A stretch of 64,000 nucleotides of DNA, taken from Nitrospinaceae bacterium. Lineage in GTDB: Bacteria; Nitrospinota; Nitrospinia; Nitrospinales; Nitrospinaceae. The stretch is taken from assembly GCA_965223665.1 (NCBI GenBank), contig OZ245011.1, forward strand, positions 2,752,001 through 2,816,000, given 5' to 3'. The position numbers were made by a program, and so were the translations under genes. Below, piece after piece: positions 3,726-12,390 of the stretch. Each line of letters starts with the position of its first letter. Position 1 is the stretch's first letter. The notes beneath the pieces are model-generated. The model saw only the letters and a program-made list of their open reading frames with translations. It did no database searches and was not told the DNA's origin.

Positions 3726-4038
3726 GTAACTAGGGAAAAATTAATCATTTTTCGGATATGTGAAATTAAAAAATTAAAAATAACCAATTATTCTTTTAAG
3801 GGTAGTAAATATTTTTTCCCTATCTTTCAAGAGATAAAAAGTTACTTTTTTTTCGACTTTCTTAACTTAGTGTTACAGATTAGAAAATAATCGTAATTTC
3901 GAATAAATTTAGACTTATTTCTTTTGAAAAAATTTTTGAAAATGGTATCGTATGTAAAAAAAGAAATTCGTTTGGGGTATTTTTTGGTTATTTAAATGAC
4001 CTTTACGAGGTATATATAAATTGTTTGGAGGATAAATA

Positions 4039-7000
4039 ATGACCTTTTTGAAATTAACAAAAAATCGACATTGGACATTAATAATGTCCCTATGTTTTTT
4101 GATTTTTGGAAAAACTGCGTCAGCAGATTTAAATGACTGGGGTCCCTTCCTTCAAACTCTTACTCCAAACAGCGTTATTGTAAAATGGCGTGTTCCCGCT
4201 TCCGAGGATTTCAATAACAGTATTCATTTTGGAACCTCTCCGGGAAGTTTAACCACTATAGAAACCGACACAACAGCAGTGACCAAGTCATGCGGTTATT
4301 GTCCTGAAAGTTGGAGGGAATATGAAGTGACGCTCACCAGCTTGACTGCCGATACCCGTTATTATTATGCAGTTGGAACATCAACCACTCCTTCCACAGA
4401 ATCAAAGCATAATGGAACTTTTTTAACTCCACCAAATGCTGGAACGGCAAAGCCGACTCGAATCTGGGTTGTTGGAGATTCTGGTACCGGAGACACTCGT
4501 GCGCTAGTGGTGGGTGAACGATTTAAGAATTATACAAAAGACCGTGATCCGGATATCTGGTTGATGCTGGGAGACAATGCCTATGATGATGGTAATGACC
4601 GTAATCACCATGATGGTGTGTTTTTAATGTATCCGGAATTCTTAAGGAATGTATCGGTGTGGCCAACGTTTGGAAATCATGATGCACGAAGTGCAACGTC
4701 TGGAAATGAAACCGGGACCTATTTTGACATCTGGCAACTCCCTCGAGCGGCAGAAGCCGGTGGAGTGGCCTCGGGAACTGAGGCGTATTATTCGTTTGAT
4801 TACGGCAATATTCACTTTATTGTCTTGGATTCGTTTGGTCATCCTCGAGTAGCGCCTTCCTCAATGATCACCTGGTTGCAAAGTGATTTAGCGGCCAATG
4901 ATAAGGAATGGATCATTGCGTATTGGCACCATCCTCCTTATACCCGTGGTTCTCATAACTCTAATGCAGAGCAGATTTTAATCGAAATGCGTGAGAACAT
5001 TGTTCCTATTCTGGAAAGCAATGGAGTGGATTTAGTGTTGTCGGGTCACAGTCATTCTTATGAGCGGTCTTATTTTCTGAATGGACATTATGGAGATCAG
5101 ACGACTTTTAATCTGGGCACTCATGCCTTAGACAGTGGGAATGGTAAATCCGAACCGCTGCATATGTCAGATGGAGCATATTCTAAAACATTAAATCCAA
5201 ATGGGACCAAGGCAGGAAATGACGGCGCTGTTTATGCCGTGGCCGGAAGTTCAGGCAAAATTTCTGGAGGATTACTGAATCATCCAGCTATGTACCTTTC
5301 ATTAAACAAATTAGGTTCAATGGTATTGGATGTGTATGAGAATCGTCTGGAAGCGATCTTTATCGATTCCCTGGGTAAAATCGAAGACCAGTTTACGATT
5401 ACTCATGATTTGAATACCTTTCCTCCGGAGTTGTTTTCGGTGTATGCGCCGAATCCGTTGACATTAGAAGTACAGTTTTCGGAGCCTCTGGAAAAAGTGA
5501 GTGCCGAGAATGCAGGAAACTATGTATTAGATAATGGAGCCACCATTACGGCTGCAGAACTGTTGGATGATTATCGAACCGTGAGGTTACTGACTTCAGA
5601 ATTGAGTAACACAACGACGTACAACCTTACAGTGACCAACGTTCAGGATCATGAAAGTAATACAGCGATCCCGGCACCGGGAAGTCAGTTCAGTTTTACT
5701 CCGAGTTTTGTAGATCCACCTGTGTATTCAGCACACTTTCAGGATGGGACGTACCCTCACTCCGGATACAACGGAACCCGGGATACTTATATTTTTGAAG
5801 GGGCACCGGATACGAATTACGGAACCAAAGCAGAACTGATTGCACATGGACCTTTTGAAAATACGATAGAAGGTGACGCTCTGGTGTTGGTGTCCTGGGA
5901 TTTATCATCGATTCCATCGAATGCGACGATTCAATCGGCGACGGTTTATTTTGACCTGTATAATAGAAGTGAGACGTCTTATCATCTGCACCAGATTTTA
6001 ACAACCTGGACGGAAATCGGAGCGACCTGGAATTCATTAGGTGGAACCACAAATGTAAGCGGTACGATCATGGGAACCATCACACCCCAGAAGTTTGCAA
6101 TGAACACGATTCCATTGAATGCAGCTGGGATTAGTGTAGTTCAGGGTTGGGTGGACGGAACCATTACCAATAATGGATTGGCAGTGCAGAATGGTGGTCC
6201 AGGCGAACATACCAAATGGTGGAACGCAATTCGGTTTTTTTCCAGGCAAACGGACACACGTCCGCGGTTGTCTGTGACTTATACCTTGCCAACCGGTGCA
6301 GACAGTATTGCACCGTCAATCATTGCTCCACCGGATGTAGTGGTGGATTCTACCGGGGATCAAACTTCTGTGACTTTAGGGTCTGCGGTTGCGGTGGATG
6401 ATAATGGATCTCCAACAGTCACTAATGATGCGCCAGCAGGTGGGTTTCCTTTGGGAATGACTATAGTAACCTGGACGGCGACAGACGCTGCTGGTAATAC
6501 CGGAACGGACACACAAAAAGTAACTGTCAAAGTTCCGGAAAGCCTTTTGACACACACGATAAGTTTTCAAAACGGTGTAGAACCAAGTGCCTTTTATTTT
6601 GGAACTGAGGATTCTTCCTTAAGGGAATCATCCCCTCATAAAAATGAAGGGAATGACACCGAGCTATGGGGTGACGGAAACGCCCCTGACCCTGAAACCG
6701 GTCAATATGGTGAAGTAACATTTGTAACCAAATGGGATGTATCGGCTATTCCTTCAGACGCGGTTGTTACAGCAGTTGATGTTTCATATAACGTGTTTAA
6801 TGACTCTCCGGTGAATCATAACATATATGCGGTTGAAGCAGATTGGACGGAACCGGAAGTTACCTGGGAAATTATCAGCCATTCTACTACTGTGGGAAAT
6901 ACCATTTTAGGAGCCATTCCCCCCTTTACTTTTAATGAAAACATTGTCACTTTAAATCAAGCCGGGATAGATCTTGTGCAGGGCTGGATAAATGGCACCA

Positions 7001-9996
7001 TCCCCAACTATGGTTTTTATATCCAATCCTCAGGTAGTAATAACGGAATGGGTGTGCATTCCAGTGAGGCAACCACTGCAACTACCAGGCCTAAAATTAC
7101 AATTTCATATGTAATCCCAAATGGTGCAGATGTAATACCTCCAGTAGTAACAGCGCCACCTGATATTACAACTACAGATACCACACCTGATATAGGAACT
7201 GGAACCGCAATTGATAATGTAGATGGACCGTTGACCCCCACGAATGATTCCCCTGGGACGTTTCCGCTGGGAACCACGATAGTGACCTGGAGCGCTACGG
7301 ACGCAGCAGGGAATACTGGAACGGACACCCAATCGGTCACAGTTCAGGAAGCCCCTGGTGGTCCGGTAACGGTGAGTTTTCAGGAAGGAGTGTTACCGGA
7401 TGCGGGCTATGCAGGAACACAGGATAGTTTGTTAAGACAAACGTCTCCGGATCAAAATTTCGGAACCGATGTGCAACTGTTGTCTGATGCGGTTGCTCCG
7501 GATCCGAGTAACGGTTTATTTGGGGAAGTGATGTCGGTGGTGTCCTGGGATTTAACCTCAGTTCCTAATACGGCTGTGGTGTCCTCCGCCAGCATAACGA
7601 TGGATTTCTTTGATGCGAGTTCAGGTCCGTATAATTTCCTGCAGGCGTTGACCCCGTGGAATGAGGGAACCGTAACGTGGAACAGTTTTGGGGGTGGGTC
7701 TGCGAATGTGGGCACCGATATTATAGCCACGATTCCTGGATTTTCCTTCAATGAAACCGAGGTGAATTTAACGGCCGAGGGTCTGAGTTTAGTTCAGGGT
7801 TGGATTGATGGAAGTATTGCCAATAATGGATTGGTTCTGAAAACCGGTGGAAGCAATAATGGAGTTGGAGCGAATTCGAGTGAAGCGACCACGAATCGAC
7901 CTAAGATCACGATCACTTATTCGATACCTACCGGTGGTGATACGGAACCCCCTGTGGTGACAGCCCCGGCAGATATTGTGACGGTGTCTACAGGAGATCT
8001 GACTCCGGTGAGTTTAGGTACCGGTACCGCGAACGATAATGTGGATGGTCCATTAGTGCCGACCAATGATGCCCCGGCAGGCGGATTCCCGGTGGGTACA
8101 ACGGTTGTGACCTGGTCAGCTACAGACTCTTCAGGGAATACGGGTACAGATACGCAAAATGTAACGGTACAAATACCGGTATCTGGAGGAGTGGAAGCGG
8201 TGAGTTTCCAGGAGGGAGTGGAACCGAACCCGGCTTATGTGGGAGTGCAGGACAGTTATTTAAGACAGACCTCTCCGGATCAAAATGTGGGAACGGATGT
8301 GCAACTGTTGTCTGATGCAGTTGCTCCAGATCCGAGTAACGGTTTGTTTGGAGAAGTGATGACTGTAGTGAATTGGGATGTGTCGGGAATCCCAACGAAT
8401 GCGACGGTACAATCGGTGAGCATAACGATGGATTTCTTTGATGCGAGTTCAGGTCCGTATAATTTCCTGCAGGCGTTGACCCCGTGGAATGAGGGAACGG
8501 TAACCTGGAACAGTTTTGGGGGTGGGTCTGCGAATGTGGGCACCGATATTATAGCCACGATTCCTGGATTTTCCTTCGATGAAACCGAGGTCAACTTAAC
8601 GGCGCAGGGAATCAGTCTGGTTCAGGGTTGGATTGATGGCAGTATTCCTAATAACGGATTGGTTCTTAAAACTTCAGGCACTAACAACGGCGTCGGGGCT
8701 AACTCCAGTGAGGCAACCACTAACAGACCTAAACTTAATATTACTTTCTCAACACCAAGTGGTGGAGGAGATACGATTCCTCCAGTAGTAACTGCACCGG
8801 CGGATATTACAACCACAGACACAACACCCAACCTGGGAACCGGAACGGCCGTTGATAATGTGGATGGGACTTTAGTTCCAACGAATAATGCGCCGGCAGT
8901 CTTTCCATTAGGGACAACGATTGTAACCTGGAGCGCTACCGACTCTTCTGGAAATACCGGAACTGATAATCAATCGGTCACCATTACAGATCCGACATCC
9001 ACGGATACCACACCTCCTGTAGTGACCGCTCCGGCCGATATCACAACAGAAGCCACCGGGCCGACCACCAGCGTTTCTTTAGGCACCGGCACTGCCAATG
9101 ATAATGTCGATGGGCCTATAACTCCGACTAATGATGCACCTTCCGGGGGATTCCCTGTGGGGACCACCATAGTCACCTGGAGTGCTACGGATACCGCTGG
9201 TAATACAGGAACGGATACCCAATCCGTCACTATTACAGATACCACTGCACCAACAGTAACTGCACCAGCGGATATTACCACTACAGACACAACACCCAAT
9301 CTGGGAGCCGGAACGGCCAGTGATTTAGTAGATGGATCGATCACGCCAACGAATAATGCTCCGGGAACATTTCCAATTGGAACGACGATTGTTACATGGA
9401 GCGCCACGGATACCGCCGGCAACACTGGTACAGACACACAAAGTGTTACGGTGCAGTCTGGAGGTTCTACCACAGTGAACTTAACAAGTTCTAATGATAC
9501 TTTTATCCGGGAATACCAACCTTTCGATGTTAATGGTTTGATGACAACTCTGGAAGTGGATGCAGATCAATTAAACCCGCCCTCTGGTTTCAATGATGAG
9601 ATCTTCGCAGTGCTTGCCTGGAATGTTTCATCGATCCCGAGCACAGCCAATGTGCAATCAGTGACGATAACTTTTAATGTGACTAATACCAGTTCAGGAA
9701 CCTATGAGCTATTCCAAACATTGACTGCCTGGTCAGAGACCACAGCTAATTGGTATACTTTTTTACCACTTTCCACCTCTCTGGGAAGCAGTGTTCTGGG
9801 AACCTTTAATCCTACAGCAGGATCCAATGTGATCACTCTCAATGCTTCCGGAATTAATTTAGTTCAAGGTTGGATCAATGGTTCAATAACTAATAATGGA
9901 ATTGCCGTTCGTAGTGGAGGCACAACTGATAATACAATTTTTAATTCAAAAGAAGCGGCTTCTAACAAACCTCAAATTTCCATTACCTATAACTAG
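4039..9996 (+). CDS. Large secreted purple-acid-phosphatase-type metallophosphoesterase with an Ig-like domain, 5 DNRLRE-like and 6 HYR-like domains
   Basis: RBS GGAGG and signal peptide ending ASA. FN3-like PAP N-terminus (GPFLQ..TPNSV.VKW). Metal motifs GDSG, GDNAY, GNHD, YWHH, GHSH. Repeated D[ST].[IL]....P..N.G...W....P.[LI]...[YF] modules and TW[ST]ATD..GN modules. Confidence 0.88.
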   Translation: MTFLKLTKNRHWTLIMSLCFLIFGKTASADLNDWGPFLQTLTPNSVIVKWRVPASEDFNNSIHFGTSPGSLTTIETDTTAVTKSCGYCPESWREYEVTLTSLTADTRYYYAVGTSTTPSTESKHNGTFLTPPNAGTAKPTRIWVVGDSGTGDTRALVVGERFKNYTKDRDPDIWLMLGDNAYDDGNDRNHHDGVFLMYPEFLRNVSVWPTFGNHDARSATSGNETGTYFDIWQLPRAAEAGGVASGTEAYYSFDYGNIHFIVLDSFGHPRVAPSSMITWLQSDLAANDKEWIIAYWHHPPYTRGSHNSNAEQILIEMRENIVPILESNGVDLVLSGHSHSYERSYFLNGHYGDQTTFNLGTHALDSGNGKSEPLHMSDGAYSKTLNPNGTKAGNDGAVYAVAGSSGKISGGLLNHPAMYLSLNKLGSMVLDVYENRLEAIFIDSLGKIEDQFTITHDLNTFPPELFSVYAPNPLTLEVQFSEPLEKVSAENAGNYVLDNGATITAAELLDDYRTVRLLTSELSNTTTYNLTVTNVQDHESNTAIPAPGSQFSFTPSFVDPPVYSAHFQDGTYPHSGYNGTRDTYIFEGAPDTNYGTKAELIAHGPFENTIEGDALVLVSWDLSSIPSNATIQSATVYFDLYNRSETSYHLHQILTTWTEIGATWNSLGGTTNVSGTIMGTITPQKFAMNTIPLNAAGISVVQGWVDGTITNNGLAVQNGGPGEHTKWWNAIRFFSRQTDTRPRLSVTYTLPTGADSIAPSIIAPPDVVVDSTGDQTSVTLGSAVAVDDNGSPTVTNDAPAGGFPLGMTIVTWTATDAAGNTGTDTQKVTVKVPESLLTHTISFQNGVEPSAFYFGTEDSSLRESSPHKNEGNDTELWGDGNAPDPETGQYGEVTFVTKWDVSAIPSDAVVTAVDVSYNVFNDSPVNHNIYAVEADWTEPEVTWEIISHSTTVGNTILGAIPPFTFNENIVTLNQAGIDLVQGWINGTIPNYGFYIQSSGSNNGMGVHSSEATTATTRPKITISYVIPNGADVIPPVVTAPPDITTTDTTPDIGTGTAIDNVDGPLTPTNDSPGTFPLGTTIVTWSATDAAGNTGTDTQSVTVQEAPGGPVTVSFQEGVLPDAGYAGTQDSLLRQTSPDQNFGTDVQLLSDAVAPDPSNGLFGEVMSVVSWDLTSVPNTAVVSSASITMDFFDASSGPYNFLQALTPWNEGTVTWNSFGGGSANVGTDIIATIPGFSFNETEVNLTAEGLSLVQGWIDGSIANNGLVLKTGGSNNGVGANSSEATTNRPKITITYSIPTGGDTEPPVVTAPADIVTVSTGDLTPVSLGTGTANDNVDGPLVPTNDAPAGGFPVGTTVVTWSATDSSGNTGTDTQNVTVQIPVSGGVEAVSFQEGVEPNPAYVGVQDSYLRQTSPDQNVGTDVQLLSDAVAPDPSNGLFGEVMTVVNWDVSGIPTNATVQSVSITMDFFDASSGPYNFLQALTPWNEGTVTWNSFGGGSANVGTDIIATIPGFSFDETEVNLTAQGISLVQGWIDGSIPNNGLVLKTSGTNNGVGANSSEATTNRPKLNITFSTPSGGGDTIPPVVTAPADITTTDTTPNLGTGTAVDNVDGTLVPTNNAPAVFPLGTTIVTWSATDSSGNTGTDNQSVTITDPTSTDTTPPVVTAPADITTEATGPTTSVSLGTGTANDNVDGPITPTNDAPSGGFPVGTTIVTWSATDTAGNTGTDTQSVTITDTTAPTVTAPADITTTDTTPNLGAGTASDLVDGSITPTNNAPGTFPIGTTIVTWSATDTAGNTGTDTQSVTVQSGGSTTVNLTSSNDTFIREYQPFDVNGLMTTLEVDADQLNPPSGFNDEIFAVLAWNVSSIPSTANVQSVTITFNVTNTSSGTYELFQTLTAWSETTANWYTFLPLSTSLGSSVLGTFNPTAGSNVITLNASGINLVQGWINGSITNNGIAVRSGGTTDNTIFNSKEAASNKPQISITYN
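7591..7763 (+). repeat. Near-identical intragenic direct repeat, copy 1
   Basis: Matches 8419-8591 (offset 828 nt) with 3 mismatches seen by eye. Confidence 0.9.
8419..8591 (+). repeat. Near-identical intragenic direct repeat, copy 2
   Basis: Matches 7591-7763. Confidence 0.9.
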
Positions 9997-10067
9997 TCTT
10001 AAATATAAATAGGTAATCAAAAAATTTTGGTTTGTTAATTTTTTAAACTGTTTCGTAAAGGAATGGA

Positions 10068-10931
10068 GTGGCTTTAGTTAATATGAAACCGTCAAAATTG
10101 GGTTTGCTAATTAAAAAGCTTTGCATTATTCTTTTGTTTCCCTCATTGGTTTCGGCACATGGAGATTTACACCAACGCATCCAAATCTTAACTAATAAAA
10201 TAAAAATTGATAATAAAGATCCTGAGTTATTTTTAAAACGAGCTGAACTTTACCGGCAACATCAGGAATGGAATTCAGCAATTAGAGACTTTAAAAAGGT
10301 CCGTGAATTAAAACCCCAACACCCATTACTTTCTTATTTATTCGGAAAGTTATTAATTGAAGCAAATAAACCTCTTGAAGCTAAAAAAGAATTAGATCAA
10401 TTTATTAAACTTAATCCCAATCATGGACCCGCCTTTTTATATCGAGCACGAACCTGGGTTAAGTTGAAAAATAATAAAGAAGCTGAGAAAGATTATAATC
10501 AGGCCATTCAGTTTTTTACTCCTCCCGAACCCGATCTATATTTAGAGCGAGCCAATATTGTTTTCTCAATGGGAAAACCATTTAAAGAAAGAGCGGTACA
10601 GGGATTGGATGAAGGAATAAAAAACATAGGCCCCATTGTTACCTTAATTAATCAAGCCATCCAATTTGAAAGGGAAATCGGAAAATATAATCAGGCTATC
10701 CAACGAATCGAACTTTTGCCTGTAAAGTTAAAGTCCCATCCTTTTTGGCTGAACATCAAAGGTGATATATTAATTGAGGCGGGAAAAAACGAAGAAGCAA
10801 AACATACTTTTTCTTTAGCATTGGAAAAGATCAAAAATTTCTCTTCAAGGCGCAAACAAACCAAAGCAACCCAAAAACTTGAAGAAGAAATACAGCAAAA
10901 ATTAAAAAGCATAAACCCATCAAAAAAATAA
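10068..10931 (+). CDS. Secreted tetratricopeptide-repeat protein with predicted mature N-terminus HGDLH
   Basis: Signal peptide ending VSA followed by HGDLHQRI; several TPR-like helical pairs. Start could alternatively be the ATG at 10083. Confidence 0.85.
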   Translation: MALVNMKPSKLGLLIKKLCIILLFPSLVSAHGDLHQRIQILTNKIKIDNKDPELFLKRAELYRQHQEWNSAIRDFKKVRELKPQHPLLSYLFGKLLIEANKPLEAKKELDQFIKLNPNHGPAFLYRARTWVKLKNNKEAEKDYNQAIQFFTPPEPDLYLERANIVFSMGKPFKERAVQGLDEGIKNIGPIVTLINQAIQFEREIGKYNQAIQRIELLPVKLKSHPFWLNIKGDILIEAGKNEEAKHTFSLALEKIKNFSSRRKQTKATQKLEEEIQQKLKSINPSKK

Positions 10932-10932
10932 A

Positions 10933-12390
10933 ATGTCCTTGGATAACCCATCCAGCCCGGTAGTGCATCCCTATGAATTGTTAGGTCACTCCTTAAAAAG
11001 CGAGTACGATTATTATCCAGAAGTCGAAGGATCCCTTCCCAAGGAAATTCAAGGTAACCTTTATAGAAACGGCCCAGGGTTATTTGATCGTGATGGATAC
11101 TTTAAGCAACATTTGCTGGATGGAGATGGAATGATTCAAAAGTTCCATTTCCACAATAATCAAGTTCATTATCAAAATCGATTTGTAAAAACAGAAAAGT
11201 TTCATAAAGAAAATACCAAAGAAAAATTCCTTTTCCCCACTTGGACAACCTTAGCACCCAATTGGTTTAATAACCTTCCTGGATTTCCATCAAAATCACA
11301 AGCAGGAGTGACCACATTAGTAAAAAACAAAAGGTTACTCGCCTTTGATGAAGTCAACCCTCCCTATGAACTAGATCTTAATTCTCTGGAAACACTTGAG
11401 GAGTTTTTCCCCGATGTTGGTGATGTAAATTATCGTTACTCATTAAAAGCACATACAAAAACTGATGGGATTACCGGTGATTGGATTTTAGTGGGAGTAG
11501 AACCAAAGTTTTTTCATATCTTGATTAATGATAAATATGGAAAACTAAAAACTCACAAAATCGTCAAAACTCCACGATTGACTTATTTGCATGATTTTTT
11601 TGCAACTCCCAATTACGTGATATTCCTTTTACATCCAATAAAAATTTCTTTATTTAATTTTTTTTCAATCCTTACCGGCTTTAAAAGCCTAACGGATGGC
11701 CTTGAGTGGAAACCCGAACTGGGAAACTTGATAATGGTAGTACCAAAGGATGGGAAAGATTCTTTGAAAACTTTTGAGGCCTCATCTTCCTTCATGTGGC
11801 ATAGTCTTAATGCTTTTGAAAGAGAAGAAGAAATTTTTGCAGATTTTGTTGGATATGATAACCCTGATCATTTTATTGGATTAAAACCTCAACTAAAATC
11901 CATTATGACAGGTGAAATAGGAACTGCAAATTACTCTGGAAATTTTCGACGCTATAGAATTAACGTTAATTCTAATACCCTTCATGAGGAAATATTGGAC
12001 TCGGAAAACTTCGAATTTCCTTCCATTAATCCAAGGCGATCCTGCTACCAACATCCTTTTGGATACTTCACAACATCAAAAGTTTCCACAATATTTCATA
12101 ATGGATTGGCAAAAATAGACCTTAACACAGGAAAAAAAGATACTTTTTATTTTGACAATAAAACTCATGTTGGAGAGCCTATTTTTGTCCCGAAATCTAT
12201 AAAAAAAATACAACGTGAAGAACAAAATGATACTGGATGGATTTTTACCCTTGCTTTAGACGGGTTGACTCAAAAAAGTTTTTTGGCAGTTTTTGATGGG
12301 GATAATTTATCATCCGGACCTATTGCAAAAATTTTATTAACCCATCATACTCCTTTAAGTTTCCATGGATGGTGGGAACCCACATTTTAA
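10933..12390 (+). CDS. Carotenoid oxygenase / lignostilbene dioxygenase family (RPE65 superfamily)
   Basis: GNLYRNGPG, HLLDGDGM, EFPSIN and GEPIFVP motifs. Four Fe-ligand His in AHTK, LHDF, WHSLNAFE and FHGWW. Confidence 0.93.
   Translation: MSLDNPSSPVVHPYELLGHSLKSEYDYYPEVEGSLPKEIQGNLYRNGPGLFDRDGYFKQHLLDGDGMIQKFHFHNNQVHYQNRFVKTEKFHKENTKEKFLFPTWTTLAPNWFNNLPGFPSKSQAGVTTLVKNKRLLAFDEVNPPYELDLNSLETLEEFFPDVGDVNYRYSLKAHTKTDGITGDWILVGVEPKFFHILINDKYGKLKTHKIVKTPRLTYLHDFFATPNYVIFLLHPIKISLFNFFSILTGFKSLTDGLEWKPELGNLIMVVPKDGKDSLKTFEASSSFMWHSLNAFEREEEIFADFVGYDNPDHFIGLKPQLKSIMTGEIGTANYSGNFRRYRINVNSNTLHEEILDSENFEFPSINPRRSCYQHPFGYFTTSKVSTIFHNGLAKIDLNTGKKDTFYFDNKTHVGEPIFVPKSIKKIQREEQNDTGWIFTLALDGLTQKSFLAVFDGDNLSSGPIAKILLTHHTPLSFHGWWEPTF

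Follow-up and report, generated by a model that had tools for sequence, protein, structure and literature searches.

The locus considered here raises the question of why a small exported tetratricopeptide repeat (TPR) protein should be encoded just downstream of a giant secreted phosphatase, and of what such a protein could do for the enzyme. Both genes lie in a stretch of 64,000 nucleotides from a Nitrospinaceae bacterium (contig OZ245011.1 of assembly GCA_965223665.1, positions 2,752,001 to 2,816,000, here called the window and numbered in the genome as G000:C1:2752001-2816000), in which an open reading frame (ORF) of 1985 amino acids is headed by a purple acid phosphatase (PAP) domain and the TPR protein is predicted to begin, once its signal peptide is removed, with a free histidine (His1). 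An initial annotation had seen in them a dedicated two-gene system, with the TPR protein as metallochaperone or maturation factor of a surface-displayed, phosphorus-scavenging enzyme. The pairing of an exported His1-TPR protein with a secreted dimetal phosphoesterase is real and occurs in several bacterial phyla, and the partnership is apparently undescribed, as well as broader and less exclusive than first proposed.

The evidence for the pairing comes from gene neighbourhoods. At 43 TPR loci from GTDB genomes, a PAP-type gene adjoins the TPR gene in 23 and a different phosphoesterase in two more (25/43), and these linked loci span Acidobacteriota, Verrucomicrobiota and Myxococcota and show both gene orders. 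Among 251 Acidobacteriota genomes, 16 carry both genes, three the TPR gene only, six the PAP gene only and 226 neither; the enzyme is adjacent or fused in 16 of the 19 TPR carriers, no more than 2.2 kb away on the same strand of the same contig in all 16, and the three TPR-only cases sit near contig ends. This tally includes the unpublished G555 (both genes) and G434 (PAP only), and without G555 the fraction becomes 15/18. A sample of 101 genomes from one Verrucomicrobiota order gave 27 with both, five with TPR only, six with PAP only and 63 with neither, with 29 of its 45 TPR matches adjoining a phosphoesterase, and a set of 251 Verrucomicrobiota genomes gave two with both and six with PAP only. 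Two of the 12 PAP-only Verrucomicrobiota genomes turned out to have a divergent His-TPR gene adjoining the PAP gene. Fisher tests for co-occurrence gave p values of 6e-14 and 9e-18 in the two informative samples; related genomes are not independent, however, both samples count the positive genome that seeded them, and four genomes of the order sample recur among the GTDB loci. Nearer to the window, the same three genomes among 41 relatives have both the TPR and the PAP gene, and in G023, from another family, the PAP gene lies directly upstream of the TPR gene. Metagenome loci show adjacency in 53 of 80 cases, and in 19 of 19 with both flanks of at least 1.5 kb, but most of them appear to belong to a single Pyrinomonadaceae-type clade, and they are left out of the independent cases. 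The linkage of TPR homologues to metallophosphoesterases, on which the initial annotation had staked its proposal, is thus borne out.

The TPR gene begins 71 nt past the PAP stop codon if its GTG start is used, in agreement with the spacing of about 70 nt described before, and the ATG start yields the 282-aa protein of the database (P0003); no terminator-like site was found in the gap, in a promoter and terminator scan that performed overall at chance level. The AlphaFold 2 (AF2) model of the protein is all-helical, with a mean predicted local distance difference test (pLDDT) score of 92.7. Fold searches with it returned generic TPR structures only, and the Atlas unnamed TPR clusters only, and all 21 NCBIfam matches, including those to the named families PrsT, PilW, BamD, MamA and SycD, fall far below the curated cut-offs. 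A word search gathered 17 relatives and a profile search 150, 165 of them distinct, and the 143 of at most 360 aa form the family set, which leaves out long generic TPR proteins, seven tandem doubles and one over-extended ORF. The tandem doubles (P0021, P0025, P0026, P0029, P0042, P0046 and P0095) are about 550 aa long and bear a signal-proximal His1 on their first copy.

In the family set His1 is present in 140 of 143 members and preceded by A, G, S or P in 142, which upholds its predicted position at the mature N-terminus; signal peptides and cleavage sites of both proteins were judged from the A-x-A pattern, by eye and alignment. For comparison, a crude prediction of exported proteins in the genome gave 632, of which 15 have histidine at +1, and a Tat consensus was found in none of the 143 signal regions. 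The His-Gly-Asp-Leu-His sequence is present in the window as described, and of the three residues expected to be conserved, His1 held up, Asp3 (82/143) and His5 (96/143) did not, and Gly2 occurs in 88; HGDLH was accordingly rejected as a fixed motif. Arg33 is found in 134 members, and a second histidine or acidic ligand near His1 could come from His5, His35 (124/143) or Glu30 (123/143). The TPR-B subfamily, which scores about 90-115 bits on the profile, has His1 in 8/8 members and lacks both His5 and His35, and the G023 protein lacks His5. A 706-aa family member without His1 is fused to a multicopper oxidase (L119:4134-6254, minus strand), and P0100 is also without His1.

On the enzyme side, the five PAP motifs and the module order given by the initial annotation are confirmed by ORF analysis, Pfam, NCBIfam and motif positions. 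The blocks lie at GDSG146, GDNAY178, GNHD212, YWHH295 and GHSH336, and all 7/7 ligand positions are present (D147, D179, Y182, N213, H297, H337 and H339), the fourth block reading A-Y-W-H (AxxH) and aligning with the VxxH histidine of plant enzymes. Pfam recognizes Pur_ac_phosph_N at residues 40-118, Metallophos at 141-341, five CBM96 and six HYR modules, and NCBIfam five DNRLRE modules, the CBM96 modules being the PF24517 and NF033679 matches, in the order PAP-[461-555]-CBM-HYR-CBM-HYR-CBM-HYR-CBM-HYR-HYR-HYR-CBM. Residues 461-555, a spacer repeated across the PAP paralogues of the genome, match nothing in Pfam or NCBIfam and are putatively Ig-like. The head matches plant PAPs by sequence (E 7e-20 to 3e-13, about 20% identity), its AF2 model (pLDDT 89.5) has plant PAPs as top fold matches at a template modelling score of about 0.7, and Pfam, model and fold search agree on an FN3-like N-domain and a calcineurin-like fold. 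By sequence and predicted fold the enzyme has the marks of a purple acid phosphatase, and it is called PAP-like here. It shares with the plant two-domain PAPs (kidney bean 1KBP/4DHL, sweet potato 1XZW, wheat phytase 6GIT) the FN3-like and calcineurin-like domains and the five ligand blocks including the tyrosine, but belongs to a bacterial subfamily whose members bear long stalks, made of CBM96/HYR or other modules, and it has ligand-less paralogues and a linked TPR partner. A C-terminal anchor was not seen in a crude PEP-CTERM scan, and surface display is left unsupported, as is a role in phosphorus scavenging.

Across the loci the TPR protein partners four classes of phosphoesterase with differing accessory domains. 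PAP-A is the window type; PAP-B (GDMAY, GNHE) forms a clade mirrored by TPR-B, each with eight members and support of 1.0 and with the genes together; the third is a LamG-bearing enzyme; and class 4 is an unrelated calcineurin-like enzyme with the blocks LPDTQ, HLGDI, GNH and GH. The PAP tyrosine is absent from two of the four, the LamG-bearing class among them. As judged from sequence, what the partners have in common is a secreted dimetal phosphoesterase domain, neither the stalk nor the purple tyrosine, so a pairing with a giant stalked enzyme, as originally described, gives way to a link with the catalytic domain that extends to non-PAP enzymes. TPR and PAP distances correlate at 0.83 over 55 pairs (Mantel), but without the B clade and redundant relatives the value for the 27 A-type pairs is 0.31 (p 0.017), which is weak and would be expected from linkage alone. 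In two Acidobacteriota ORFs a His1-TPR segment, reaching from residue 1 to roughly residue 180, is followed by a Pro/Ala-rich linker, a domain of about 190 aa and an intact PAP, and a third fusion of the same layout (P0169) has a TPR part 70% and 59% identical to theirs. In all three, His1 is retained and the TPR part stops about 70 residues short of its usual end, and they probably reflect one event; at least three fusions exist, a narrower search having scored 8000 candidates. Many partner enzymes, and the fusions too, have ahead of the PAP domain a region of about 190-200 aa (L018:3227-3835, L031:10795-11400) without a Pfam match. At L104, L105, L115, L117, L120, L028, L054 and L106 the enzyme is a secreted calcineurin-like protein of about 1000-1135 aa; Pfam failed to recognize its catalytic domain in the five full-length members that were scanned, and at L104 the TPR gene lies between two enzyme copies.

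The genome of the window encodes 11 PAP-headed paralogues and a single TPR protein of the His1 family. Of 21 genomes without an adjoining PAP of the same subfamily, 13 have one elsewhere, often in 6-9 copies, and with such ratios here and in several other TPR genomes the idea of a dedicated two-gene system falls. Five of the 11 PAP heads have all ligands and six have lost at least two; the latter, in ORFs starting at G000:C1 1101747, 3037717, 3191951, 4144905, 4151084 and 4161334, are likely non-catalytic by sequence, and the modelled TPR-docking residues are retained in 6/6 of them. The window PAP gene is itself a mosaic of three segments that each match a different paralogue, without a difference over 4034-5498, at 99.9% identity over 7234-8808 and at 99.6% over 8764-9996. 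Since its orthologue in the sister genome G001, which is syntenic here, is only about 85% identical, conversion among the paralogues was probably recent, and the pattern suggests ongoing module shuffling. One short-read contig covers 9267-10271 and joins the PAP and TPR genes, and another starts exactly at 4034; the runs come from one sample, probably the genome's own source, and are not independent support. At G000:C1:3037717-3048714, a ligand-less PAP-headed ORF of 3665 aa is followed by small ORFs, one with a putatively RHS-core-like sequence; the locus is possibly polymorphic-toxin-like.

Whether the two proteins could bind each other was addressed by co-folding the mature TPR protein with the PAP head and with Fe and Zn, on paired alignments of 47 rows (the window pair and 46 A-type pairs among the 54 that passed filtering out of 104). 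The complex scored 0.67 and the best control 0.00; among solved complexes 116 of 157 come up to that mark of 0.67, and among mismatched pairs 2 of 215, counts that are rough with custom alignments and ligands. The modelled complex called for by the initial annotation thus passes its controls. The runs share at least 63% of contacts, with partner pLDDT of at least 87. TPR residues 91-240 form the interface, with the lowest-error contacts at 235-240, which are missing in the fusions, and at 157-162, which the fusions keep, and the enzyme contributes segments preceding the strands that end in ligand histidines, so that the TPR protein probably contacts the PAP face away from the metals. As a model, the co-fold supports TPR-PAP binding.

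The reading favoured here, at a probability of roughly 0.4, is that the TPR protein acts in the periplasm as a "caddie" shared by secreted calcineurin-like dimetal phosphoesterases, with His1 binding or delivering metal; a physical partnership of any kind between the two proteins is highly probable. Both proteins would be exported through Sec, and the enzyme must therefore fold and take up two metals outside the cytoplasm, as is generally understood for Sec-exported dimetal enzymes of this family. Signal peptidase would free His1 at the conserved A-x-A site, and the C-terminal half of the TPR protein would dock, as in the model, on the catalytic domain at a distance from the metals. The N-terminal hairpin, where helix topology would cluster His1 with, usually, His5 and His35, would bind a metal ion and may either hand it over or guard the site until loading is complete. 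A single TPR gene would in this way serve many enzyme paralogues, and in the fusions the covalent link would stand in for the docking helices with the His1 end retained. The caddie reading is preferred because of the linkage, the two gene orders, the four enzyme classes, the three fusions, the co-fold score and the conservation of His1. There is precedent both for a histidine after the signal peptide that binds transition metals (PMC12537917) and for a tyrosinase caddie that brings copper to a dinuclear site (PMC6312201). A wider claim, that His1-TPR proteins are general periplasmic metallochaperones that dock by the C-terminus and deliver metal from an N-terminal His site, one copy maturing a whole repertoire of modular exoenzymes, is doubtful; such a metallochaperone would be the first found for the calcineurin-like superfamily within the literature searched.

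Several observations weigh against the caddie reading. Among the ten remaining PAP-only Verrucomicrobiota genomes, all drafts, a wider profile found no family member in nine and one truncated at a contig end in the tenth, and six of 22 Acidobacteriota PAP genomes had no TPR gene in a first-pass search. PAPs with intact ligands thus occur in genomes without a detected TPR protein, which is not found with every such enzyme, and the pairing is not obligatory. A fixed multi-His site is not universal, because the B subfamily has lost His5 and His35, and the member fused to a multicopper oxidase shows that neither His1 nor a phosphatase is needed for the scaffold to be kept. The His1 count is partly circular, the profile having been built from His1 members, a concern eased by the low-scoring B subfamily, which also starts with histidine in every case. 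PAPs use Fe and a divalent ion. The His1 families of PMC12537917 bind Cu or Ni. In the co-fold, neither His1 nor any metal ligand is among the confidently placed interface residues, which is no evidence of an absence of contact, and conservation of the interface is not above that of the remainder, buried residues included (PAP 0.57 vs 0.63, TPR 0.55 vs 0.54).

Other roles deserve to be weighed as well. His1, R28 and D44 alone are invariant when A, B and class-4-linked members are compared, as would suit one ligand that completes the metal site of another protein, and the TPR protein could be an AprI-like inhibitor or pro-domain that docks by its C-terminal half, lets His1 reach the dimetal site and keeps the phosphatase silent in the periplasm until release, acting in the fusions as a cleavable pro-domain. 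AprI is likewise encoded beside aprA and periplasmic, with a freed N-terminal residue coordinated by the zinc of the protease (PMC4070987), and caddies also block the active site (PMC10526336), so that inhibition is compatible with the caddie reading. It is nevertheless improbable as the explanation, given the confident interface without His1 or any metal ligand, the five intact paralogues that one gene must titrate, and fusions that would be permanently inhibited unless cleaved. The metallochaperone role of the initial annotation stands as one of three live mechanisms and not as the sole candidate, this inhibitor having been overlooked there. A positive and lasting role would suit the fusions, and the third mechanism is a permanent accessory subunit, whose basic TPR groove or His1-held metal captures polyanions (phytate, polyphosphate, nucleic acid or a phosphorylated polymer) or tethers the enzyme and thereby makes it more active. 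The median isoelectric point of 9.4 for the TPR proteins against 5.4 for the PAP domains and the arginines R28, R96, R98, R131, R183 and R210, conserved in at least 90%, agree with it; on the other hand, one TPR gene to 11 enzyme genes fits a catalytic helper better, the arginines may be structural in TPR proteins or just complement an acidic enzyme, and four partner classes are unlikely to have one common substrate. We hold this role, too, to be rather unlikely.

Two further explanations give His1 no metal role. A foldase-like folding or export chaperone would account for the generic TPR superhelix, the modelled contact away from the active site, the docking residues kept by the six ligand-less paralogues and the existence of a His1-less member, but the retention of His1 in nearly all of the family set, in the B-type members and in all three fusions (3/3) speaks against it, and we hold it to be unlikely. 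Simple co-inheritance without physical contact, in a shared regulon or cassette, would explain the 18 of 43 GTDB loci at which no phosphoesterase adjoins the TPR gene, the six genomes among these in which no PAP-type match was found, five of them also lacking a close class-4 match, and the correlated trees, which arise from linkage alone; the fusions, the co-fold pass and the repeated pairing, in either gene order, with enzymes of four classes make it very improbable. Table 1 lists the features of the two genes.

Table 1. Features of the phosphatase and TPR genes in the window.
Feature	Position	Strand	Evidence
Secreted modular PAP-like metallophosphoesterase, 1985 aa, one of 11 paralogues	4039..9996	+	ORF, Pfam, NCBIfam, genome search
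Predicted Sec signal peptide, residues 1-29	4039..4125	+	judged by eye and paralogue alignment
FN3-like N-domain and dimetal catalytic domain, all seven PAP ligand positions	4126..5418	+	Pfam, alignment, AF2 model, fold search
Main modelled TPR-binding surface, residues ~220-329, probably at strand ends away from the metals	4696..5025	+	co-fold interface and secondary-structure order
Spacer domain of ~95 aa, putatively Ig-like	5419..5703	+	common to 11 paralogues; no library match
Stalk of 5 CBM96/DNRLRE and 6 HYR modules, lineage-specific, shuffled among paralogues	5719..9993	+	Pfam, NCBIfam, paralogue comparison
1465 nt identical to paralogue head at G000:C1:2557857, by recent conversion or duplication	4034..5498	+	genome self-comparison
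Exported His1-TPR protein, single copy in the genome	10068..10931 (start GTG 10068 or ATG 10083)	+	ORF, Pfam, searches, AF2
Predicted mature N-terminus His-Gly-Asp-Leu-His; His1 near-invariant, others vary	10158..10172	+	sequence, family alignment
TPR C-terminal half, mature residues ~120-240, modelled phosphatase-docking surface; last ~70 residues without counterpart in fusions	10515..10877	+	co-fold, fusion alignments

The stalk of the enzyme was considered as part of the system and rejected, partner enzymes elsewhere bearing fn3, Big, dockerin, Calx-beta or LamG domains instead. It lies outside the conserved pair, and CBM96 is abundant in this genome, with 113 CBM96/DNRLRE modules on G000:C1 among 64 ORFs bearing CBM96, HYR or PAP domains. 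These ORFs include a large secreted family of about 280-520 aa with one N-terminal CBM96, clustered at 1.73-2.13 Mb. The CBM96/DNRLRE module known from Dp0100 TM6-N4 (PDB 7VBO) has five PF24517/NF033679 copies in the window enzyme; alginate binding is shown for the CBM96 founder only, and the DNRLRE relatives have no known function (PMC9971899). An RPE65 carotenoid-oxygenase gene (10933-12390) begins 1 nt past the TPR stop codon and was rejected as a third member, being interrupted in the G001 alignment (about 0.9 kb unaligned) and missing after the TPR gene in G023.

The logic of the pair resembles that of known enzyme-plus-accessory pairs, and its parts are new. The caddie of Streptomyces tyrosinase is presumably of the MelC1 type. 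There, a dinuclear metalloenzyme has a small dedicated binding partner that aids metal loading and is able to block the site, while other tyrosinases do without a caddie or carry a fused extension (PMC6312201, PMC10526336); the folds are unrelated, however, the caddie metal is Cu, and the TPR protein has its own Sec-type signal, a free His1, several enzyme paralogues to serve and a role that is inferred. AprA-AprI, a serralysin and its inhibitor, shares the adjacent gene, the periplasmic partner and a functional N-terminal residue freed by signal peptidase (PMC4070987), but there the enzyme is a single-zinc protease and the inhibitor is no TPR protein, and the present model does not place the N-terminus at the metals. 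Exported His1 metal-binders (LPMO, CopC, YcnI, DUF4198, DUF6702 and anglerases) have, like the TPR protein, a conserved histidine directly after the signal peptide (PMC12537917); DUF6702 and the anglerases are beta-sandwiches, whereas His1-TPR is all-helical. Neither "TPR" nor "tetratricopeptide" occurs in the main text of PMC12537917, and its supplementary source data hold at least 30 matches to "TPR", among which the family could be. A TPR-type partner for any PAP was not found in the literature searched (on PAP-TPR pairs, bacterial PAPs, metal loading, N-terminal His and Nitrospina), subscription journals being mostly outside it.

PAPs are enzymes not previously known to need a helper, and the His1-TPR protein is a candidate for one. 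It offers a concrete and small candidate for the metal loading or silencing of Sec-exported dinuclear phosphatases outside the cytoplasm, in abundant soil and aquatic lineages, and could account for poor heterologous activity of bacterial PAP-like enzymes, where this is seen. If the proposal is true, an all-helical fold joins the His1 metal-binders, and one family annotated simply as "TPR protein" gains a specific partner.

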